This document shows, piece after piece, positions 15,980-41,320 of a stretch of DNA of 50,899 nt. The notes beneath the pieces were generated by a model. That model was given only the letters and a program-made list of their open reading frames with translations. It did no database searches and had not been told where the DNA came from. The stretch comes from a virus (taxonomy: Duplodnaviria; Caudoviricetes): the IMG/VR virus record IMGVR_UViG_3300021440_000032, positions 1 to 50,899 of that record. One strand, 5' to 3'. Every line of letters begins with the position of its first letter. Position 1 is the first letter of the stretch. The translations under genes and the position numbers were made by a program.

Positions 15980-16888
15980 TTAGGCACCCTGGCTTCCGTA
16001 GATAGCACGGGGATCAGTCCAACCGAAGCTATAACGGGCAGAAGCCTTATACTTAGCATTTTCAGTATCGAAGTCTTCATCCATACCGAACTCATCACCA
16101 CGACGTTCAAAGTACTTCAGTCCATGTTGAACATCAGTGCGGATGAACCAAGCGTCTTGATCGGTTAGATAATGGTTAACCACAATCTTAGGAATCAGAC
16201 CCATATCCTTCAGAGCATTGATATCATTGTTATCGGTACCAACACGACCTGCTGTTTTCAGGATACGCTGTGCTTCAAAAGCTAGTTGACGAGGAATGAT
16301 TAGGGTCTTAGGTAGAACCTTGATCAGTAGACCACGATCATTAGTGAAGCCACCAATGTCGATGCAAGCTTGCTCTAGGGATGCTTCTGATAGGTCAGCA
16401 GCAGTAGAGATTACGTTACTCCATGTACCACCAGCAAAGTTTGCATGGTTGGAAGCGATCATTTGAACGCCATCACCACCAGTGTAGTTAGAATCGAATG
16501 CACGGTTATAAACGTTAGCTGCAACGATTTCCTTGGTTTGACGCATAGAGAAGGCTAGGCCTTGAGCTTTACGTTGACCAACTACATCATACTGATCATC
16601 TTCATAGATCTCACGAGTTACGATAAAACCTAGAGCAAAGACGGTATGATTATACCGAGTGATGAAGCCTTGACGTTCAGTATCATAAGTGATAGGAGAA
16701 CCTTCAGGCTTTTGAACGGCCAGTCCAAATGAACTGATACCGACATCTTCTTCAAACTGCTTACGTGATGTATAGGTATCGAATAGGTCTGTATATTCTA
16801 CAGGATACTCATCATAAGCCTTACCATACCATGCGTTAATACCAGGCCATAGGGCCTTGGCAAACGAGGAACTATTAATAACTGACAT
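15980..16888 (-). CDS. Major capsid protein
   Basis: 302 aa; KPEGSPITYD, LIIPRQL, HYLTDQDAWF, RYSFGWTDPRAIYGS; follows scaffold and decoration genes. Confidence 0.9.
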   Translation of the reverse strand: MSVINSSSFAKALWPGINAWYGKAYDEYPVEYTDLFDTYTSRKQFEEDVGISSFGLAVQKPEGSPITYDTERQGFITRYNHTVFALGFIVTREIYEDDQYDVVGQRKAQGLAFSMRQTKEIVAANVYNRAFDSNYTGGDGVQMIASNHANFAGGTWSNVISTAADLSEASLEQACIDIGGFTNDRGLLIKVLPKTLIIPRQLAFEAQRILKTAGRVGTDNNDINALKDMGLIPKIVVNHYLTDQDAWFIRTDVQHGLKYFERRGDEFGMDEDFDTENAKYKASARYSFGWTDPRAIYGSQGA

Positions 16889-22760: not shown

Positions 22761-22835
22761 TGGAGCGGGATCAGGGAATCGAACCCTGTATAACTAGCTT
22801 GGAAGGATAGGGAGCTACCATTGCTCATATCCCGC
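22761..22835 (-). tRNA. tRNA-Gly(UCC), with non-canonical positions
   Basis: GCGGGAT/ATCCCGC acceptor, loop CTTCCAA, GGTTCGATTCC T-arm, encoded CCA. Confidence 0.85.
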
Positions 22836-23680: not shown

Positions 23681-23709
23681 TTTCTACTCAGAAAGATTAA
23701 TATGCATAT

Positions 23710-23739
23710 ATTATATCATATTAATCTATTAACTTACAA
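23710..23739 (-). promoter_or_regulatory. Candidate late-arm sigma70-type promoter
   Basis: TTGTAA-18-TATAAT with extended -10 TG, about 30 nt before the TerS start. Confidence 0.55.
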
Positions 23740-23892
23740 TACTTACGTTACAGTATTTATATAATAATTGTAAATTAAATATAAAAATAGTGCGGCCGAC
23801 TACTCAGGAGGCAGAGTTCGTTAGAACACTCACAGAGCAATCGAATGATTGCGATTGCAGCATATTTCTATTTGAGCAGGATGCTCATTCTA

Positions 23893-23945
<53 letters not shown>

Positions 23946-24008
23946 TAATAATATAGTTATTAATATTATTATTTATTTTAATTATTTATTTATTATTAGG
24001 AATTTATT

Positions 24009-25633: not shown

Positions 25634-25705
25634 TTCCAGGTTTTACAGGGTTGTAAAAGCCCTGTAATGCGTGTAATCTCGCACGACAACAACGTAGGAT
25701 AGATC

Positions 25706-26278
25706 ATGTCTGATAAGACTGCTGATACACTTGAAAATGGTCAGATCGCTCAAGGCGAAGCATTGGCCGTTCGTTTCAATGAACACTGTCGCGATGAGGG
25801 CTCCAAGCTGATGCGCTACATGAAGGACTTGTTCGAGTTGTCTTTGCAAGGCCGTAAAGCCTTCCGAGTCAACGTTGAGCACATTCTCAAGCAGTGGCGT
25901 GCTGAAGTGAAAAACCATGAAGGCACAGACAAGGAAGAGTTGTATCAACGTATGGCCCGTAGTGCTGGCGTCCGTCTGTCTGAAGCCGTGACTATTTCCA
26001 AGGCATTTGATGCTGGATTTAATCCTGACTTTGATCTGTCTTCTACTGGTGCTATTCTGGTTAAGGTGAATGGCGAGTATGCTGGTTATCACTCGCTGGT
26101 GGGCTTCGCCCGTCAATTCCGTGATTCCCAAGCTGCCAATGGTCCCACTGCCAAGCGTGGCCGTAAGGCTAAGGATGAGCTTACCAAGGCTATGGAATAC
26201 CTCGCCAAGCTGGAGCTTGATGACGTGGCCCGTGATGCACTGGTGGCATTCCTGACCGATCCTAAGGGACAAGAGTAA
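25706..26278 (+). CDS. Early hypothetical protein (190 aa, basic KRGRKAK patch)
   Basis: RBS AGGA, codon usage like a highly expressed gene. Confidence 0.75.
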   Translation: MSDKTADTLENGQIAQGEALAVRFNEHCRDEGSKLMRYMKDLFELSLQGRKAFRVNVEHILKQWRAEVKNHEGTDKEELYQRMARSAGVRLSEAVTISKAFDAGFNPDFDLSSTGAILVKVNGEYAGYHSLVGFARQFRDSQAANGPTAKRGRKAKDELTKAMEYLAKLELDDVARDALVAFLTDPKGQE

Positions 26279-26285
26279 TCAACCC

Positions 26286-26361
26286 GGGCCGGTAACTTAT
26301 TGGTTAAAAGTAGCGGGCTCATAACCCGTTAATGAGAGTTCGATTCTCTCCCGGCCTACCA
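26286..26361 (+). tRNA. tRNA with CAU anticodon (Ile2 or Met)
   Basis: GGGCCGG/CCGGCCT acceptor, GCGGG-CTCATAA-CCCGT, GTTCGATTC T-loop, ACCA end. Confidence 0.9.
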
Positions 26362-26409
26362 ATTACAATCGTGTAATTTCTGTCAACTGTCAACAACTGG
26401 AGTTAAGTC

Positions 26410-26682
26410 ATGCAAGTTCTGCAAAACGTGGTAGAAGTGAAGGAAGAAGGTTTTCTTGCCTTGATTGGTAAGAATGTGGAAGTATTCTGTGGTATCTACA
26501 TATATGCTGGAAAACTTGTGGGTGTGAACACTACATGTATCAAGTTGGAGAATCCCCATATTGTGTATGAAACAGGTGGTTTCCTGGACAAGAAGTATAA
26601 GGATGCCCAACAAATGGGGAGGCAATTCCACTATATCTCAACTGCCTTTGTTGAGTCTTTTGGTGAAAGTCACAAACTGTGA
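26410..26682 (+). CDS. Small Sm/LSm-fold-like protein
   Basis: FLALIGKNVEVFC..YIYAGKLVGVNTTCIKLENPHIV resembles the Sm1 pattern; GGAG RBS. Confidence 0.55.
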   Translation: MQVLQNVVEVKEEGFLALIGKNVEVFCGIYIYAGKLVGVNTTCIKLENPHIVYETGGFLDKKYKDAQQMGRQFHYISTAFVESFGESHKL

Positions 26683-26870
26683 TTGGACGTAAACAACGAA
26701 GCCAGTCTGGGTCTAGGTCTGGGTCTGGGTCTAGGTCTTGGTCTTGGTCTGGGTCTGGGTCTAGGTCTGGGTCTAGGTCTAGGTCTTGGTCTTGGTCTGG
26801 GTCTGGGTCTAGGTCTAGGTCTAGGTCTAGGTCTAGGTCTGGGTCTGGGTCTGCGACCAAGACCTTTTAA
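26679..26870 (+). CDS. 63-aa RS/GS/WS dipeptide-repeat peptide
   Basis: GTG start overlapping the upstream TGA (GTGA coupling). Confidence 0.6.
   Translation: MIGRKQRSQSGSRSGSGSRSWSWSGSGSRSGSRSRSWSWSGSGSRSRSRSRSRSGSGSATKTF
26709..26852. repeat. Tandem hexamer array (NGGTCT)24
   Basis: 10 GGGTCT, 10 AGGTCT, 4 TGGTCT; 48-bp higher-order periodicity. Confidence 0.95.
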
Positions 26871-26903
26871 GTTTCAATTCTTTCAACTCATCTGGAGATT
26901 ATT

Positions 26904-27143
26904 ATGATTCGTGCAACATCTATGACCCATGCATTCGCAACTGCTGCTACTCGCAATCCCAATTGGATTGCACGTCAAGTGGAAGATCGTATCGTCCACA
27001 CGAAGGTTGGTATCGTCCGTGAAAAGGACCACATCAACGTAAGCAAGACCACAGCTCTGAAGTTGGTAGGGTCTATCATCGGCCACATCGCTGCCACCAA
27101 CAAGCAGCAACATCCCCGCGTTGTTGCGGATATCCAAGGCTGA
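26904..27143 (+). CDS. Early hypothetical protein
   Basis: GGAG RBS; tandem gene packing. Confidence 0.7.
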   Translation: MIRATSMTHAFATAATRNPNWIARQVEDRIVHTKVGIVREKDHINVSKTTALKLVGSIIGHIAATNKQQHPRVVADIQG

Positions 27144-27183
27144 TTAATTGGGCTTAGGCCCCTTAATTACAAAGGTGTAAATC

Positions 27184-27525
27184 ATGAAAGTTGAAATCAA
27201 TCACCCACATGCTGAAGCTATTGCAGCTTTCTATAATGGACGTAGAATCCGAAGTATATCATACACTGGTCACCCACCCTGGATGAAACTTGGTGTTAAT
27301 AACCCACTTTTCTCACCAGAAAACAGATACGAAATCGAACCAGAAGTCAAGGTGAAGTATTCATCTATGTACAAGACTAGTACTCAAGGCACTGCCATTG
27401 GTGTTGGTGAATTTACGACATATCACCAAGCTTCTGAAAGTATTCGTCCGGACGAATTTGCTGGGGTGGTGAAGAAGACATATACAGACAATGTGTTGAC
27501 TGCAATTGAAATTGTGAAAGAGTAA
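27184..27525 (+). CDS. Early hypothetical protein
   Basis: HPHAEAIAAF..YEIEP motif typical of phage early proteins; AGGT RBS. Confidence 0.7.
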   Translation: MKVEINHPHAEAIAAFYNGRRIRSISYTGHPPWMKLGVNNPLFSPENRYEIEPEVKVKYSSMYKTSTQGTAIGVGEFTTYHQASESIRPDEFAGVVKKTYTDNVLTAIEIVKE

Positions 27526-27534
27526 GGAAACAAA

Positions 27535-27723
27535 ATGAATGTGAAGAAGATGGCTCGACGTGTTCGGGCATTGGAGCGTTTCAAGGTTTTGCCATTTGAC
27601 CAAGTACGTGATCGTGAGGAGGAATTCGACCGTCCTTATACCGAAGTCGATTACAATTTGTATTTGGATCGCAAGCAAGCTGAACTAAACTCGTTGAAGA
27701 AGTATCATGGCGTTCAAATTTGA
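27535..27723 (+). CDS. Early hypothetical protein
   Basis: AAGGA RBS; packing. Confidence 0.6.
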   Translation: MNVKKMARRVRALERFKVLPFDQVRDREEEFDRPYTEVDYNLYLDRKQAELNSLKKYHGVQI

Positions 27724-29166: not shown

Positions 29167-29242
29167 CTGCCCGTAGCTCAATGGAAAGAGCAACAGATTT
29201 CTAATCTGTGGGTTGGGGGTTCGAGTCCCTCCGGGCAGGCCA
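29167..29242 (+). tRNA. tRNA-Arg(UCU)
   Basis: CTGCCCG/CGGGCAG acceptor, ACAGA-TTTCTAA-TCTGT, GGTTCGAGTCC, GCCA end. Confidence 0.95.
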
Positions 29243-32061: not shown

Positions 32062-32377
32062 ACTGAAATTTATCCACCTTCAAGGGTTGGAAAATGCTTT
32101 ATATCGGTTGTCAGGTAATGTCCACCATGTTATTCAGTACTTGGATTATACTGGTGCATTTAACAAGGATGGAGATACTTATTGGGGGTTTATCACCGTA
32201 AATGAAAAGGACACCATTCATATGCCATATACCCCTCCTGGCCTGAAGCATCTTCTTTCCAAGTTCGACGACGTTCTTTCATACGAGGAAGTCCATAAAT
32301 CAACTCCCTTCGCCAATGTGAACTATTGGGAAGGTAACTATCTCCAATTCCATATTTACAAGGTTGCAAAGAAATGA
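32051..32377 (+). CDS. Hypothetical protein (start reassigned to MTTKLK)
   Basis: Fills gap and overlaps neighbours. Confidence 0.55.
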   Translation: MTTKLKFIHLQGLENALYRLSGNVHHVIQYLDYTGAFNKDGDTYWGFITVNEKDTIHMPYTPPGLKHLLSKFDDVLSYEEVHKSTPFANVNYWEGNYLQFHIYKVAKK

Positions 32378-33153
32378 ACTTTAAGATTGGCTGTGATCCT
32401 GAAGTCTTCGTTCGGGATCAGAACGGATACAGGTCTATCATCGAAACCATCGGGGGCTCCAAAGATTTTCCTCGCCCATTGGATGAACTCGGTAAGGGAT
32501 TCTGTGTCCAAGAGGATAACGTTGCTATGGAATTCAATATTCCTGCTTCGTCTTCCAAGGGTGAATTCATTACAAACGTTGTAAAAGCTCGTTTGTTCCT
32601 GGATCAACTGGTGCGGGACCAGTATGGCTGGTTCATGTCCAGTGAGTCTGCTGTTATCTTCCCTGAAGAGGAATTGCAGCATCCTATGGCCAAGGTATTC
32701 GGCTGTGATCCAGACTACAATGCCTGGAACAAGCGTCCTAACCCACGTCCTAAGGCTGCTAATGCACGTCTTCGTTCTTGTGGAGGACATGTCCACGTTG
32801 GGGCAGATCTTACAGAAGATCAGAAGTGGGCACTGGGACAAGCTATGGACTTCTATCTTGGTGTGCCATCCGTACTGATGGACAAGGGCGAGGCTCGCAA
32901 GGAACTCTATGGTAAGGCTGGGGCAATGCGCCTTAAGTCTTATGGTATGGAATATCGTACCCTGAGTAACTTCTGGATCTTTGATCAACGTCTGATTGGT
33001 TGGGTCTATGAACAGACTGCCAAGGCTGTTCAAGCAGTAGAGGTCGGCACATCCTTCAAGGATCTGCGCAAGACCATTACAAATTGTATTAACAACAATG
33101 ACAAGCAGTTGGCTCAACTGTTGGTTGATGAATATGAACTGACGACGGTGTAA
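32374..33153 (+). CDS. phiEco32-like COOH-NH2 ligase (glutamine synthetase-like fold)
   Basis: IGCDPEVF, QEDNVAMEFN, FGCDPDYNAW, RSCGGHVHVG, RKELYGKAG..YGMEYRTLSNFW. Confidence 0.9.
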   Translation: MNFKIGCDPEVFVRDQNGYRSIIETIGGSKDFPRPLDELGKGFCVQEDNVAMEFNIPASSSKGEFITNVVKARLFLDQLVRDQYGWFMSSESAVIFPEEELQHPMAKVFGCDPDYNAWNKRPNPRPKAANARLRSCGGHVHVGADLTEDQKWALGQAMDFYLGVPSVLMDKGEARKELYGKAGAMRLKSYGMEYRTLSNFWIFDQRLIGWVYEQTAKAVQAVEVGTSFKDLRKTITNCINNNDKQLAQLLVDEYELTTV

Positions 33154-33756: not shown

Positions 33757-34758
33757 ATGCCTGATGATATTGAAGTTAACCCGGCTGCTGGTCTACAACC
33801 ACTGTGGAATCAAGCAATTGTTAATGCCCGTCCCCGGGCTGCAAGACCCATTGCAGGTATCCTAGATGAACTGGCCCCAGTAGGAGGGTTTGAAGTTTTC
33901 CTTCAAGATGCTGCTTTGAAGAAGCAATCTACTGCATCCGAGTATGACACTCAGATCATGGGACAGATCTGGAGCATCAAGATCCATGATCGAGTGATCA
34001 AGGCAATGGCTGCTCATCCTGGTGAAATCATCAAGGGTATCGAGCTTGAGATTGAGAACTGGCCAGAGAACTGGGCTGATTCTTCTGCGGTAGGGTTTAC
34101 ATTCACGGAAGATGGTAGCCTTCGTAACAATGGTACTGAAGCAGTAAGTCACCCGAATAATACTCGTGGTTTGCTGGCTGTGACAGAACAATTGTGGAAG
34201 AAGTTTAATATCCAGTCGGATAAGAACTTCTCTGACCGCACATCCATTCACGTTCATGCTAACGTATTTGACTTTACTGGTGCCCAGTTCAAGGCCATTA
34301 CACTGTTGTATCAGGTCTTTGAAGAGTTGCTTTTTGCATATGTCGGGGATGACCGTGCAAATAACATCTTCTGCGTACCTTGGTACGAAGCAGGTGTGAC
34401 TGCATTCAACCATCAACTAATGGTGAAGAGTCCTCGTGGTTGGAATAAATACACTGCACTGAACCTTGCTCCAGTAGCATCTCAAGGCAGTATCGAATTC
34501 CGTCATATGGCTGGTCATGCAGACATTACCAAGTTGGCTGGGTGGCTTAACATCATTGATGATCTGATGCTTTCTGCAAAGAAGACGGATTACAACAGTG
34601 TAATCGATCGTATTCAGAATATCAATACAAACTCTCAGTATGCTGAGTTCCTTTACTCTATCTTCCCTAATACGGGTTCTCTGTTGAAGACCGCGGACTA
34701 TGAACGAAAGATGTCTCGCGGTGTGGTTGAAGCCAAGCTGGCCTTGGTAGGAGCATAA
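33757..34758 (+). CDS. Putative amidoligase (Amidoligase_2-like)
   Basis: GIELEIE, EDGSLR..E, RTSIHVH, KYTALNL, GSIEFRH. Confidence 0.9.
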   Translation: MPDDIEVNPAAGLQPLWNQAIVNARPRAARPIAGILDELAPVGGFEVFLQDAALKKQSTASEYDTQIMGQIWSIKIHDRVIKAMAAHPGEIIKGIELEIENWPENWADSSAVGFTFTEDGSLRNNGTEAVSHPNNTRGLLAVTEQLWKKFNIQSDKNFSDRTSIHVHANVFDFTGAQFKAITLLYQVFEELLFAYVGDDRANNIFCVPWYEAGVTAFNHQLMVKSPRGWNKYTALNLAPVASQGSIEFRHMAGHADITKLAGWLNIIDDLMLSAKKTDYNSVIDRIQNINTNSQYAEFLYSIFPNTGSLLKTADYERKMSRGVVEAKLALVGA

Positions 34759-34759
34759 T

Positions 34760-36037
34760 ATGTGTGGTATCGTTGGTGTGATTAACAAGAATCCTCGTCG
34801 TGGCTTTAATCATCGAGAGGCTGAGTTGTTTCGTACCTTGCTACTGCTTGACACCCTGCGTGGCAAGGACAGTACTGGGATCTTCGGTGTGGACGCTGAT
34901 GGCAATGTAGACATTGCTAAGGATATCCTTACAGGCAGTGAGTTCACCAAGAAGAAAGAGTACCTTGACATTGAGAAGAGCATGATCCGTGATGGCTTTG
35001 CCATGATTGGGCATAATCGTGCTGCTACTCGTGGTGTTATCGTAGAAAAGAATGCTCACCCATTCTGGTATAACGACGAAGTTGTGCTGGTACATAATGG
35101 TACCTTCGCAGAAGACCATAAGAAACATGCCGACGTGGACGTGGATAGCGAGGCTCTGTGCCATCTTGTCGGTAAGCACGCTGTAGATGACGTGGATTCT
35201 GTATTCCAGAAGATTAATGCGGCATATGCAACCATTTGGTATGATGCCCGTGATAAGTCCGTGAACATCGTTCGTAATCATGAACGACCGCTGCATTTCT
35301 ATGACATGGGAGCATGTTATGTGGTGTCTTCAGAGAAGAGCATCCTTATGTTTGCACTTAGTCGATGTGACTTTAAGTTCAAGATGGAAGAGGTAGTCAT
35401 GATCAAGGAGGATGTTCATGTCAAGTTCAAGATGGAAGGCCACCAAGTCAAGGTATCCAACTCTGATATTGAGCATGTACAACCTACTTCCAAAGTATGG
35501 CCTTGGGTTCCAATTCATCAAGTTGCAAAATCAACAGAACCAATTGTTGACACCAAGAAACTCCCTAATGTGACAAAGGAGGTGATCGAAGCTGCTAACG
35601 AAGCAGGTAAGGTCATTGATTCTTTTCGTCTCGGAACAGACCGTACAAGTCACAACCAAGCCATTGACGAAGACCTTGGTCCGCAAACCAGTTACGTCCC
35701 GTTCGCAAGGTACGAAGAAGCAAGAGAGTTCTACCCTACTGACGGTACCCTTAATTTTGCTCCTCGTTCTGTTGTTTCTCTTTCAGGTGATGAGTGCTTG
35801 CTTTACGGAACTGTTCAAAACGAGCCGGACATCCTGGCGGCAGTAGTTATCTCTGAGAAGACATTGGATCGTTTGGTTAGTAGTTGTGGTGTTAACAATA
35901 TGGTCAAGATCCGTATTCGTACACAAACCTTCCTGAATAAAACAACGTCCCTTGATGTTCGTGAGAACAAGGGTTTGGTTATTATCTATGGTGTTGAACC
36001 AGAAAATGTTGAGGTGATTGAACATGCCAGTTGCTAA
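34760..36037 (+). CDS. Class II (Ntn) glutamine amidotransferase with C-terminal extension
   Basis: MCGIVG, RGKDSTG, GHNRAATRG, NAHPF, VHNGT, DVDSE. Confidence 0.92.
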   Translation: MCGIVGVINKNPRRGFNHREAELFRTLLLLDTLRGKDSTGIFGVDADGNVDIAKDILTGSEFTKKKEYLDIEKSMIRDGFAMIGHNRAATRGVIVEKNAHPFWYNDEVVLVHNGTFAEDHKKHADVDVDSEALCHLVGKHAVDDVDSVFQKINAAYATIWYDARDKSVNIVRNHERPLHFYDMGACYVVSSEKSILMFALSRCDFKFKMEEVVMIKEDVHVKFKMEGHQVKVSNSDIEHVQPTSKVWPWVPIHQVAKSTEPIVDTKKLPNVTKEVIEAANEAGKVIDSFRLGTDRTSHNQAIDEDLGPQTSYVPFARYEEAREFYPTDGTLNFAPRSVVSLSGDECLLYGTVQNEPDILAAVVISEKTLDRLVSSCGVNNMVKIRIRTQTFLNKTTSLDVRENKGLVIIYGVEPENVEVIEHASC

Positions 36038-39534: not shown

Positions 39535-40089
39535 TTGTCATTTAAAACAAGCAACAAATGGCAGTCAGAACTAGATAAACTTCTATATCTATCAGAACAA
39601 GGGAACTCTTTTGAAGAGATTGGTAAGGTGTATGGTGTAAGCCGTCAACGTATCAAGCAGGTATTCAAAAGATATAACCTACCTCATAAGGGTGTAAGGT
39701 ATCTAGTCAAGCTTCGTAGAGAAGCTGAAAAGGTAGACTACAAACTAAAGTGGGGAGATAAGGATGATACTGATCTCTATCGTGCTAAACGAGCTAAGTT
39801 TCGTGGTAAAAGAGATAATGCCAAACGAGCAGGAATTCCTTTTAACATCGAGTTTGGAGAATTAGTATTTCCAAATGTCTGCCCAGTACTAGGAATCCCT
39901 ATTGACTACTTCTCAGATGGTAGATCAGAAAATAGTCCTAGTTTTGATAGGATTAAACTAGATTTAGGGTATGTTTCAGGTAATGTTGTGATCATGTCCT
40001 GGAGAGCAAACAGGATTAAAAATGATGGTACAGCAGAGGAACATAAACTAATTGCACAATATCTTAGCAATATGAATGAACAACCTTGA
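39535..40089 (+). CDS. Homing endonuclease (N-terminal HTH plus His-Me finger, same family as 38262)
   Basis: SFEEIGKVYGVSRQRIKQ; GIPFNI..CPVLG..SPSFDRI..GYVSGNV..ANRIKN. Confidence 0.8.
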   Translation: MSFKTSNKWQSELDKLLYLSEQGNSFEEIGKVYGVSRQRIKQVFKRYNLPHKGVRYLVKLRREAEKVDYKLKWGDKDDTDLYRAKRAKFRGKRDNAKRAGIPFNIEFGELVFPNVCPVLGIPIDYFSDGRSENSPSFDRIKLDLGYVSGNVVIMSWRANRIKNDGTAEEHKLIAQYLSNMNEQP

Positions 40090-41320
40090 ACTACTACTAC
40101 TAAGACTACTACTATATAATAATAATTATATTAAATATAAACATTTAATAGATTATAATTATATTAAAGAATATAATATAGAATTATATTATATATATAA
40201 AGCATTAGGAGATTTATATGAGTTAACTAATGAAGTTACATTACAAGATTTAGAAGCATACTTCTTTGCTAAATACCAAAACAATGCTGATAAATACAAA
40301 GTTGTATTTGACTCGCTGCAAGCGATTGAACTTTCTGATCATGTAGTAGACACAGTTCTGCAAGAACTGAATAAAAAGAAAAATGCATTGTTGCTGAGTG
40401 AAAAGGCATTCGCCTTTACTCAGGGTAGATCCTCCATAGAGGATATTACTGCGGCGTATGACGCCATTTACACTCCTGTAAAACAAGAAGATGATCCAAA
40501 TGAATTCGTTAGTACTGATATTGAGGAGCTGGTAAATGGAACAGTGGTACGACCGGGCCTTCGCTGGCGCTTAGGTTGTTTAAATAAATCCTTAGGTTCA
40601 CTAAGACAAGGTGACTTCGGAGCAATCTTTGCCCGCCCAGAAACAGGCAAAACAACATTCCTAGCTTCTGAAGTAAGCTTTATGCTCGATCAATTAACAG
40701 AAGATCGCCCACTACTTCACTTAAATAATGAGGAACAAGGAGCCAAGGTAATGCTGAGGTATGCTCAAGCATACTTTGGACTAAGACTTGATCAGCTAAG
40801 AGCTAACATGCGGGAAACCAGAGAGGTTTTCCAAGACCGTGTTGGTAACAAGATTAAGTTCGTAGATAGTGCGCAGATTGATAAAGCGTATGTTGAGGAT
40901 CTAATGGCTAAGTTCAATCCTGGTTTGGTAGTATTCGATCAGATGGATAAGGTAAAGGGATTCAAGGCAGAGAGAGACGATCTGCTATACGGAACAATCT
41001 ACCAATGGGGTAGAGAACTCGCAAAGCAATATTGCCCAGTGATCAGCGTATGCCAAGCTGATGGCACCGCAGAAGGTAATAAGTGGTTGTTCATGAACCA
41101 CATGGCACTGGCTAAGACCTCAAAACAGGCTGAATGCGATTGGATTCTCGGTATTGGCAAGACTCATATGGATGGATCAGAGAATATGCGCTACCTGAAC
41201 TTGTCTAAGAACAAGCTGGCAGGAGATGCTGACTCTAATCCTGATTTGAGACACGGAAGGTTTGACGTATTGATTAGGCCCGAGGTGGCACGCTATGAAG
41301 ACATTATCTCATATGATTAA
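40076..41320 (+). CDS. DnaB-like replicative helicase
   Basis: ARPETGKTT Walker A, NNEE, VVFDQMDKV, SKQAECD, KNKL. Confidence 0.92.
   Translation: MNNLELLLLRLLLYNNNYIKYKHLIDYNYIKEYNIELYYIYKALGDLYELTNEVTLQDLEAYFFAKYQNNADKYKVVFDSLQAIELSDHVVDTVLQELNKKKNALLLSEKAFAFTQGRSSIEDITAAYDAIYTPVKQEDDPNEFVSTDIEELVNGTVVRPGLRWRLGCLNKSLGSLRQGDFGAIFARPETGKTTFLASEVSFMLDQLTEDRPLLHLNNEEQGAKVMLRYAQAYFGLRLDQLRANMRETREVFQDRVGNKIKFVDSAQIDKAYVEDLMAKFNPGLVVFDQMDKVKGFKAERDDLLYGTIYQWGRELAKQYCPVISVCQADGTAEGNKWLFMNHMALAKTSKQAECDWILGIGKTHMDGSENMRYLNLSKNKLAGDADSNPDLRHGRFDVLIRPEVARYEDIISYD

Follow-up and report, generated by a model that had tools for sequence, protein, structure and literature searches.

What does a long hexanucleotide array in a phage genome encode, and does it belong with the small gene in front of it? 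The question is raised by a stretch of 50,899 nucleotides from a virus of the Caudoviricetes (positions 1 to 50,899 of IMG/VR record IMGVR_UViG_3300021440_000032; the whole of this stretch is called the window below), in which an open reading frame (ORF) for a 90-residue protein is followed on the same strand by an array of NGGTCT units. An initial annotation, made from the letters alone, had read the array as the coding body of a 63-residue peptide with Ser at every second position, had noted an Sm1-like pattern in the 90-residue protein, and had proposed that the two form an RNA-binding, condensate or decoy system. Our analysis indicates that they are very probably a conserved phage module of two genes, the first encoding a protein of the Sm/LSm fold and the second, carried on the hexanucleotide array, a (Ser-[Gly/Arg/Trp])n peptide. 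The window holds one member of this large, undescribed module, which is found again in hundreds of uncultured phages. The positions of its parts and of the competing reading frames are collected in Table 1.

Table 1. Positions in the window of the two genes, of the array and of the features discussed with them
Feature	Position	Strand	Remark	Source
Shine-Dalgarno-like GGAG	26399..26402	+	7 bases 5' of the ATG of the Sm-like gene	sequence reading
Sm-like gene, 90 aa	26410..26682	+	ATG start	ORF listing
GTGA overlap	26679..26682	+	GTG 26679-26681 (peptide start) on TGA 26680-26682 (Sm-like stop)	
Peptide gene, 63 aa	26679..26870	+	GTG start	ORF listing and comparative frame support
Hexanucleotide array, NGGTCT x 24.8	26705..26853		coding body of the peptide gene	TRF
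Alternative Gly-Leu frame, 74 aa	26683..26907	+	TTG ORF	ORF listing
Antisense (Asp-X)n ORF, 106 aa	26540..26860	-		ORF listing
tRNA-Met (cat)	26286..26361	+	context, outside the module	ARAGORN

The ORF coordinates confirmed the claimed GTGA overlap between the two reading frames, and the claimed array of NGG-TCT units was recovered by Tandem Repeats Finder (TRF; period 6, 91% matches, score 200) as the top one of 26 tandem-repeat rows in the window. Read in the frame of the overlapping GTG, the product consists of a basic leader of seven residues (two Arg, one Lys), (Ser-X)25 and a tail of five residues. The array holds 25 TCT codons, and only the first base of X varies: X is Gly (GGG) ten times, Arg (AGG) ten times and Trp (TGG) four times. 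The first X is Gln, and the statement that X is only Arg, Gly or Trp thus holds at 24 of the 25 positions. In total, the peptide contains 26 Ser, 12 Arg, 11 Gly, 4 Trp and 2 Lys, with neither Asp nor Glu, and carries a net charge of +14. AlphaFold2 (AF2) modelled it with a predicted local distance difference test score (pLDDT) of 49.5 and no secondary structure, and it is predicted to be disordered.

We scanned IMG/VR with an alignment of the 90-residue protein (A1, 16 rows: the window protein, 11 of 120 listed proteins and four loci) and obtained 78 homologue loci with 40-96% identity. Two of them had no stop codon in the fetched DNA and one was cut 17 bases past the stop, leaving 75 evaluable loci. 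An array was present within 600 bases downstream of the Sm-like gene at 73 of these, at identities down to 40%; it was a clear period-6 array at 66 loci and a shorter or degenerate one at seven (five read directly, two being identical copies). The two loci without an array (L037 and L039) are identical in sequence. The adjacent repeat ORF that homologues were expected to carry is thus a regular feature of the family, and because it recurs behind homologues in this way, the array in the window is beyond chance. Arrays were also found behind homologues on three of three contigs from metagenome-assembled genomes, assigned to Chlamydiia, Nitrosopumilus and Sulfotelmatobacter. These taxa are unrelated; the contigs are probably misbinned phage contigs, and we make no host call from them. 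When all ORFs of at least 60 residues from 201 loci and the window were clustered, no third family was found to travel with the pair, the largest other real family occurring in 15 loci and being unrelated.

The peptide family extends beyond these loci. A pattern scan for seven GGTCTN units returned at least 120 viral contigs; among the matches listed, an Sm-family ORF lay upstream on the same strand within 3 kb in 62, none did in 47, and 11 offered too little sequence. The Sm family in this count includes the second, longer subfamily described below. The Sm-like gene almost always precedes a peptide gene, and the peptide gene can stand alone. On some contigs the peptide genes are present in tandem, each with its own start and leader, in about ten copies in L090 and L105 and in seven copies in L144 and L161. 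These four contigs and L147 show runs of 5 to about 10 Ser-[Gly/Arg/Trp/Gln] genes, which have their own ATG and family-specific leaders. The hexamer also has other uses (L099, L143 and L156; L092 and L154), namely as an (Arg-Ser)n stretch that ends a protein of about 110 residues at its C-terminus, and as (Ser-Trp)n followed by a hydrophobic helix.

Searches started from the peptide itself were empty: none of 8000 scored candidates reached E ≤ 0.001 in a protein-database search, the ESM Atlas gave no usable match, and Pfam applied to three peptides gave only a sub-threshold PRP38_assoc match (E 0.084) and no RNA-recognition motif (RRM). This is explained by the low complexity of the peptide, which defeats the search tools. 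The family is defined here by the design of its gene, which has a start codon, a basic leader of 5-15 residues, (Ser-X)n and a stop a few codons past the array, with at least 70% of X being Gly, Arg or Trp encoded by NGG. The window peptide has the design seen at the other 54 non-redundant loci. Complete ORFs among the non-redundant loci have a median length of 68 residues (27-103), a median charge of +11 and a median of 8 Trp, and over 1316 X positions at the 55 loci (54 and the window), Gly accounts for 36.8%, Trp for 28.9% and Arg for 26.7%.

The same 55 loci were used to ask which reading frame is selected. In the Ser-X frame, a start codon lies between the last stop and the array at 55 of 55 loci (ATG at 44, GTG at 8, TTG at 3), as compared with 11 and 13 of 55 in the other two frames. 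The commonest start position, at 21 of the 55 loci, is -4, which creates an NTGA overlap, and 48 of the 55 starts fall within -10 to +14 of the upstream stop. As the second gene thus starts on or beside the stop of the first, the two are probably coupled by termination and reinitiation. A short basic leader follows the start and a stop lies just past the array; the spacing between gene and array differs from locus to locus, and the start codon shifts along with the Ser-X frame. A Shine-Dalgarno-like motif precedes 59 of 182 distinct peptide ORFs, as against 380 of 3640 random windows. Peptide genes that lie apart from the upstream stop often have a ribosome-binding motif, for instance GGGAGG, a few bases in front of the ATG, in L038 and L040.

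The codons of the array point to the same frame. The unit type differs by lineage (GGTCTN, GGTCAN, GGTCGN, GGAGCN or GGAGTN, and GTTCGN in one locus), and the Ser-X reading of all types keeps Ser, as TCT, TCA, TCG, AGC or AGT, and X as NGG. The dominant Ser codon is TCT at 26 loci, TCG at 15, TCA at 11, AGC at 2 and AGT at 1. A change from TCN to AGY takes two substitutions and retains Ser, and after AG only T or C was observed. Stops are avoided inside the array: TGG is one transition away from TAG or TGA, and from 37 second-position G-to-A variants in other NGG codons about 17 internal TAG codons would be expected without selection. The array never ran on in frame beyond the stop (0 of 47 complete ORFs). 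The leaders are kept as protein, for instance with the pattern [KR]-Q-[KR]-[WYF] written with AAA or AAG for Lys and CGC or AGA for Arg in 22 distinct contexts, and their length peaks at 9-12 residues. The switch between Ser codon families, together with the absence of in-frame stops, indicates that the Ser-X frame is selected, and we are highly confident that it corresponds to a real gene. The choice of the X-Ser frame in the initial annotation is accordingly the one that starts, Ser codons and stops favour in a comparison of sequences.

Other readings of the array were considered and rejected. The Gly-Leu frame has no start codon at 44 of the 55 loci and was discarded as the selected frame. 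The antisense (Asp-X)n ORF was judged to be an accident of the repeat: its Asp is lost in lineages with GGAGYN units, and it also runs antisense through the conserved Sm-like gene. A purely non-coding repeat was rejected as a general explanation by the starts, the leaders and the avoidance of stops.

The sequence of the arrays also indicates how they evolve. Inside an array, the Ser codon and the -GG of X are near-uniform, and the uniform positions differ between lineages. Gly, Arg and Trp follow one another in an order that cannot be told from a random one (transition ratios 0.92-1.07), and there is no directional or block patterning (1065 steps in the forward cycle vs 1021 in the reverse). 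Variation in repeat length, suggested in the initial annotation as a product of slippage, was found at the contig level between near-identical phages: L009 and L010, whose Sm-like genes are identical, have 21 and 6 dipeptides, and L033 and L036, again with identical Sm-like genes, have 28 and 26. Uniform units within arrays, different uniform positions between lineages, random order and changes in copy number are together the signature of an array that evolves in concert by unequal exchange between units, while selection keeps the three unit types. Selection thus acts on composition, not on order. The phage carries a tRNA-Gly (tcc; 22761-22835, minus strand) and a tRNA-Arg (tct; 29167-29242, plus strand), which, given a modified wobble U, could read the GGG and AGG codons of the array; this may be a coincidence.

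Of 24 sequencing runs with matches to the stretch, one contains 0.99 of the sampled words and may be its source, and the others contain small shares. We also compared the window with contigs from four of these runs, two of DNA and two RNA libraries. The contigs of the DNA runs covered the repeat and little of the flanking genes, in a few short pieces, and the Sm-like gene was not covered by the contigs of any of the four runs. Two metatranscriptome libraries from separate studies (X20 and X21) contain thousands of contigs of about 60-78 bases of the GGTCTN type, some of them deep, and a few of their loose ends read as peptide leaders. These contigs are probably genes of other phages, and DNA carry-over may also account for them.

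The 90-residue protein belongs to a sizeable family that has no name. A clustered protein database contains 629 homologues, nearly all of 88-92 residues and none of them named, and a profile search of 1.84 billion representatives gave 438 clusters (at 50% identity) with E ≤ 0.001, 237 of them with E ≤ 1e-10. Neither Pfam nor PHROGs returned a family above threshold. The sole Pfam match, DUF6897, had an E value of 0.042 and was under its cut-off, and a profile search of the Protein Data Bank (PDB) with the family gave a single hit, at E 1.3. Sequence comparison thus does not support membership of the Sm sequence family, and we note by eye that a G-K-L-V-G-V-N stretch resembles what we take to be the Sm1 motif.

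The modelled fold is more informative. AF2, supplied with alignment A1, predicted a short helix and five strands (residues 22-27, 30-39, 43-53, 73-77 and 83-86) with a pLDDT of 83.5 and a predicted template modelling score (pTM) of 0.71. This is the make-up of the Sm/LSm fold, in which an N-terminal helix precedes five strongly bent antiparallel strands that close into a small barrel. When this model was compared with the PDB by Foldseek, all entries among the matches listed hold a protein of the Sm or LSm type, with a best E value of 6.7e-4 and TM scores by target of 0.54-0.78. This was supported by VIA-align, which is independent of Foldseek: the best match was yeast SmF (Z 10.2, root-mean-square deviation 1.8 over 65 residues), followed at Z 9-10 by proteins of the LSm and archaeal SmAP types (9.4-9.9 for SmAP), while Hfq reached about 7.4. 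Thirty-six chains reached Z ≥ 8, and 30 of 30 of those listed are entries with Sm or LSm-type proteins. The Sm fold predicted for the 90-residue protein in the initial annotation is therefore supported by the model and by both structural comparisons.

Alignment A1 further shows a conserved insert between strands 3 and 4, with the motif ...ETG.F.DKKYKDAQ..., and five invariant or near-invariant aromatic residues; by residue count the protein is near neutral. Three of 150 listed family members (P0128, P0148 and P0197) have tandem double domains, which hints that Sm-like domains work side by side, and the protein is probably an oligomer. Pfam, applied to the ten longer of the 150 listed members in search of fused domains, gave only a sub-threshold zinc finger in one protein. 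A second subfamily of Sm-like proteins, of about 110-119 residues, was joined to the first by blastp clustering and by hhalign (probability 93%, E 2.9e-7, 51 columns); it has no Pfam or PHROG name either. It occurs in L174, L105, L165 and at least 15 more loci, has the motifs ...ASW[VI]ADTGRF... and EVEP, and also precedes Ser-X peptide genes, whose leaders are of another type.

What might the two products do? On the basis of the fold, of the composition of the peptide and of the coupled expression of the genes, we tentatively propose that an Sm-like oligomer and a polycationic, aromatic, disordered peptide bind or condense RNA or another polyanion. The peptide would be a disordered polycation in which Arg and Trp serve as contact points and Ser and Gly as spacers, and would be extended while it binds RNA or another polyanion. 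The Sm-like oligomer would bring RNA to the peptide, or hold and dose the peptide. Both products, encoded within a block of non-structural genes, would then sequester, protect or condense RNA in the infected cell. Oligomerisation, RNA binding, any contact of the protein with the peptide and the timing of expression are features that we infer.

A broader version of this proposal is more doubtful. Uncultured phages might widely encode a two-part builder of RNA-protein assemblies, consisting of a barrel oligomer and unstable microproteins. In such a system the Sm-like barrel, rich in aromatic residues, would possibly be Tudor-like, and one to about ten microproteins would contain nothing but Ser and Gly as spacers and Arg and Trp for contacts. 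These would be tuned in length and valence as the hexanucleotide array expands or contracts. The builder would be a viral, prokaryotic counterpart of the RG-tailed Sm proteins and SR proteins, and during infection it would serve to sequester RNA, to protect it or to make a condensate.

Several observations weigh against the proposal that the pair binds or condenses RNA, or against parts of it. Concerning the Sm-like protein, no LSM or Hfq match was obtained with Pfam at E ≤ 1, and, judged by eye against what we presume to be the consensus, Sm2 lacks its Arg-Gly, and other residues stand where uridine is usually contacted. When either subfamily was compared by tblastn with 50,697 phage records, one metagenomic record each was matched, and no cultured phage. 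The gene families that neighbour the 201 loci and the window yield no functional hint. Concerning the pairing, peptide arrays without a detectable Sm-like gene make up 47 of the 109 evaluable loci among the matches listed to the pattern scan. Thirty-three of these 47 were read: in some, the array encodes an unrelated SR or SW repeat within another protein or has no start codon; in others, a clear member of the family follows a different gene, such as a helicase-like one, which indicates that the peptide does not need the Sm-like partner. Concerning the array, its codons are disfavoured in the long ORFs of the phage (AGG makes up 8% of Arg codons and GGG 13% of Gly codons), and synonymous positions are invariant within an array. 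We attribute both to concerted evolution, and a constraint at the nucleotide level may act as well. In both RNA libraries, the contigs match the repeat only, with 90-99% likeness, and probably derive from other phages. Finally, translation of the Ser-X peptide is deduced from sequence comparison, and RNA binding, condensation and time of expression are conjectures.

Alternatively, the peptide, rich in Arg and Trp, might be an effector with the membrane or cell envelope as its target, serving host takeover, phage exclusion or the timing of lysis; the Sm-like protein would then be a chaperone or antidote for it, or would regulate its mRNA. Trp makes up about 14% and Arg about 13% of all residues, and antimicrobial peptides of the Arg/Trp type are typically composed in this way. 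If the chain were extended, Ser would line one side of it, and Arg, Trp and Gly the opposite side. Tandem multicopy genes would suit a dose-dependent action, and the occurrence of the peptide without its partner is equally compatible with it. Yet the peptide has neither a hydrophobic segment nor a signal sequence, and its amphipathic character is diluted by Ser and Gly. The gene is located among non-structural genes, away from any recognisable lysis cassette, and the pairing with an Sm fold, whose relatives bind RNA or peptides, would be left unexplained. We consider this explanation unlikely.

No better founded is the idea of an anti-defence decoy or sponge, in which fast-changing multicopy repeats, assisted by the Sm-like protein, would occupy a host factor, be it a kinase, a protease, an ADP-ribosyltransferase, a nuclease or a nucleotide signal. 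The fast change in length (21 vs 6 and 28 vs 26 dipeptides, as described above) is what such a function would favour, as are the up to about ten diverged tandem copies on some contigs and the selection on composition rather than order; the location among small non-structural genes also fits. If an arms race were at work, however, it should diversify the peptide, and its composition is uniform across very distant phages. Furthermore, no target can be named, and no defence or counter-defence family turned up nearby, the PADLOC library not having been run. A decoy therefore also appears improbable.

Could the array act mainly as RNA or DNA that the Sm-like protein binds, be it for autoregulation or as a sponge or structural element, with an incidental or secondary reading frame? 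Ring-shaped RNA-binding proteins such as TRAP, HutP and Hfq read spaced short repeats, and the unit varies within an array at one of its six positions only, synonymous positions being constant as well, and is written in rare codons. RNA from the window also folds better than shuffled sequences (minimum free energy -92.5 kcal/mol, z -4.9). Yet the folding ensemble is diffuse, the centroid is unpaired in the array and, by base-pairing rules, self-pairing is confined to the GGUCU unit. All unit types have just GG and the period in common, and one type differs from another precisely by changes that preserve Ser. The start codons, the leaders kept as protein and the avoidance of stops have no explanation at the RNA level, which makes this possibility very unlikely.

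A conserved short leader followed by a variable core, and tandem multicopy genes on some contigs, would also be expected of ribosomally made precursors of modified peptides, for which the Sm-like protein would be a recognition or scaffold element. Leaders of 9-12 residues would be very short for this purpose, and no modifying-enzyme family co-occurs with the pair at the 201 loci and in the window, the most frequent other family being that of 15 loci mentioned above. A cluster of amidoligase and glutamine amidotransferase (GATase) genes does lie 5.5 kb from the module in the window; it is not among the 25 largest neighbour clusters flanking related loci. This origin is highly improbable. Lastly, read-through of the TGA at 26680-26682 into a 165-residue Sm-like protein with a (Gly-Leu)n tail had to be considered, since in the window the Gly-Leu frame lies in frame behind this TGA, is open to 26907, where its end overlaps the start of the next gene by ATGA, and treats the variable base N as synonymous, but sequence comparison largely refutes it and we hold it to be scarcely credible: relatives have stops between gene and array and mostly no start in this frame, the second residue becomes Leu, His/Gln, Arg, Val or Ala depending on lineage, the frame relative to the Sm-like gene is lost where the spacing differs, for instance in L023, L027, L055, L074 and L076, and a search for longer proteins gave two hits, neither with a repeat tail.

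The surroundings of the proposed RNA-binding or RNA-condensing pair are those of a non-structural region. The window is as long as the longest contig recorded for the 90-residue protein and is therefore probably a complete metagenomic contig. The structural genes are on the minus strand, up to about 23.7 kb (capsid gene at 15980-16888), and the module is located about 2.4 kb inside a plus-strand block of small ORFs that opens at an AT-rich divergent gap. This intergenic gap (23708-23998) contains several short AT-type tandem repeats, and the best sigma-70-like match of the scanned stretch falls within it (23893-23921, 11 of 12 positions). Early expression of the module, as suggested in the initial annotation, is plausible. 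It had also been stated there that the unit follows a tRNA; a tRNA-Met does lie upstream in the window, but the linkage is not conserved. No tRNA is found within 129 bases before the Sm-like gene of L001, a close relative with 96% identity, and the tRNA is for this reason placed outside the unit. The stretch upstream of the Sm-like gene, with its GGAG, is kept in L001, and so is a direct repeat of CTGTCAA (two copies, 26380-26394) just 5' of the ribosome-binding site, which may be an operator or promoter element.

Past the module, the plus-strand block contains genes for an amidoligase, a GATase, a COOH-NH2 ligase, a DnaB-like helicase, a family A DNA polymerase and ribonucleotide reductase. 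Three of them are adjacent, encoding a phiEco32-like COOH-NH2 ligase (32374-33153, plus strand), an Amidoligase_2 protein (33757-34758) and a class-II glutamine amidotransferase (34760-36037), and the trio looks like a phage cluster for peptide ligation or the modification of small molecules. A possible replication origin is an AT-rich tandem repeat at 40122-40193 (periods 12, 18 and 33), located between the DnaB-like gene and the ORF at 39535-40089. When positions 25700-27600 were compared with phage records by blastn, the sole match was one of 81 bases (77.8% identity) in a Burkholderia phage, and it falls on the tRNA-Met gene (query positions 583-663).

How does the module compare with known systems? 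The eukaryotic proteins SmD1, SmD3, SmB and LSm4 carry tails of Arg-Gly dipeptide repeats. As in these proteins, an Sm fold is associated here with a dipeptide repeat that is basic, disordered and includes Arg and Gly, and the best fold matches of the 90-residue protein are eukaryotic and archaeal Sm and LSm proteins. In the phages, however, the repeat is a separate polypeptide made from a coupled gene, with a stop always in between; it has Ser at every second residue and Trp at about 29% of X, it also occurs alone or in multiple copies, and the Sm-like protein is not a member of the Pfam LSM family. Hexanucleotide arrays that encode dipeptide repeats are also known from the GGGGCC expansion of C9orf72, whose Arg-containing products bind RNA and phase-separate. 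The C9orf72 repeats are pathological and arise by non-AUG translation, whereas the phage repeat is a normal, selected gene with start, leader and stop.

Hfq and archaeal SmAP proteins form RNA-binding rings; in the Sm/LSm superfamily, such rings have six or seven subunits, and RNA is bound in a pocket between loops 3 and 5. Hfq and SmAP are, like the phage protein, small prokaryotic proteins, and the model places it in the same fold; it has no sequence match to them and has the insert between strands 3 and 4. In SR proteins, RS domains are runs of Arg-Ser attached to an RRM and are phosphorylated by SR kinases. The phage peptide shares with them Ser-Arg dipeptides, low complexity and a presumed interaction with RNA or protein. 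Unlike RS domains, it has no RRM, its X is shared by Gly and Trp, with Arg at 10 of 25 positions in the window and at 26.7% overall, and the module belongs to phages of prokaryotes, a context in which we know of no SR kinase. RS repeats are treated in PMC2133142 and PMC11809128.

Two further comparisons are with small Sm-like proteins. The early T4 proteins GoF, MotB.1 and Frd.2 have a predicted LSm-like fold and are suspected of acting on RNA (PMC12152347). They resemble the 90-residue protein in being small phage proteins with such a predicted fold; in contrast, tblastn with the 90-residue protein matched no T4-like phage among the 50,697 records, and no repeat-peptide partner is described in the abstract of PMC12152347. 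Rof (YaeO), a small Sm-like inhibitor of the termination factor Rho (PMC10491184), acts by binding a protein and not as an RNA chaperone, and so shows that a non-canonical role has a precedent; it is not known to have a peptide partner, and it is not among the 50 VIA-align entries listed, which is no evidence either way. What sets the module apart from known systems is the separate, coupled repeat gene, the strict alternation of Ser, the abundant Trp and the multiplication of peptide genes of variable length. Full-text literature searches, which did not extend to supplements, found nothing on such phage peptides, and as a kind of system the module lies far from the published ones that we found.

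If our reading is correct, standard annotation has overlooked a large family, which counts 438 clusters for the Sm-like partner alone; the peptide genes are missed because they are short, of low complexity and open in several frames. A microsatellite-like array would in this case be a gene that is selected for its composition, not for its sequence, and its copy number, and hence the valence of its product, would shift between near-identical phages. For annotation, the lesson is that where a phage contig has a hexamer array behind a gene for a small barrel protein, the Ser-X frame of the array should be annotated as a gene. The pair would also offer a simple system in which to study how polymers of Arg, Trp, Ser and Gly handle RNA together with Sm-like proteins in bacteria, and it could reveal what the phage gains from this, be it takeover of host RNA, protection of its own RNA or counter-defence.

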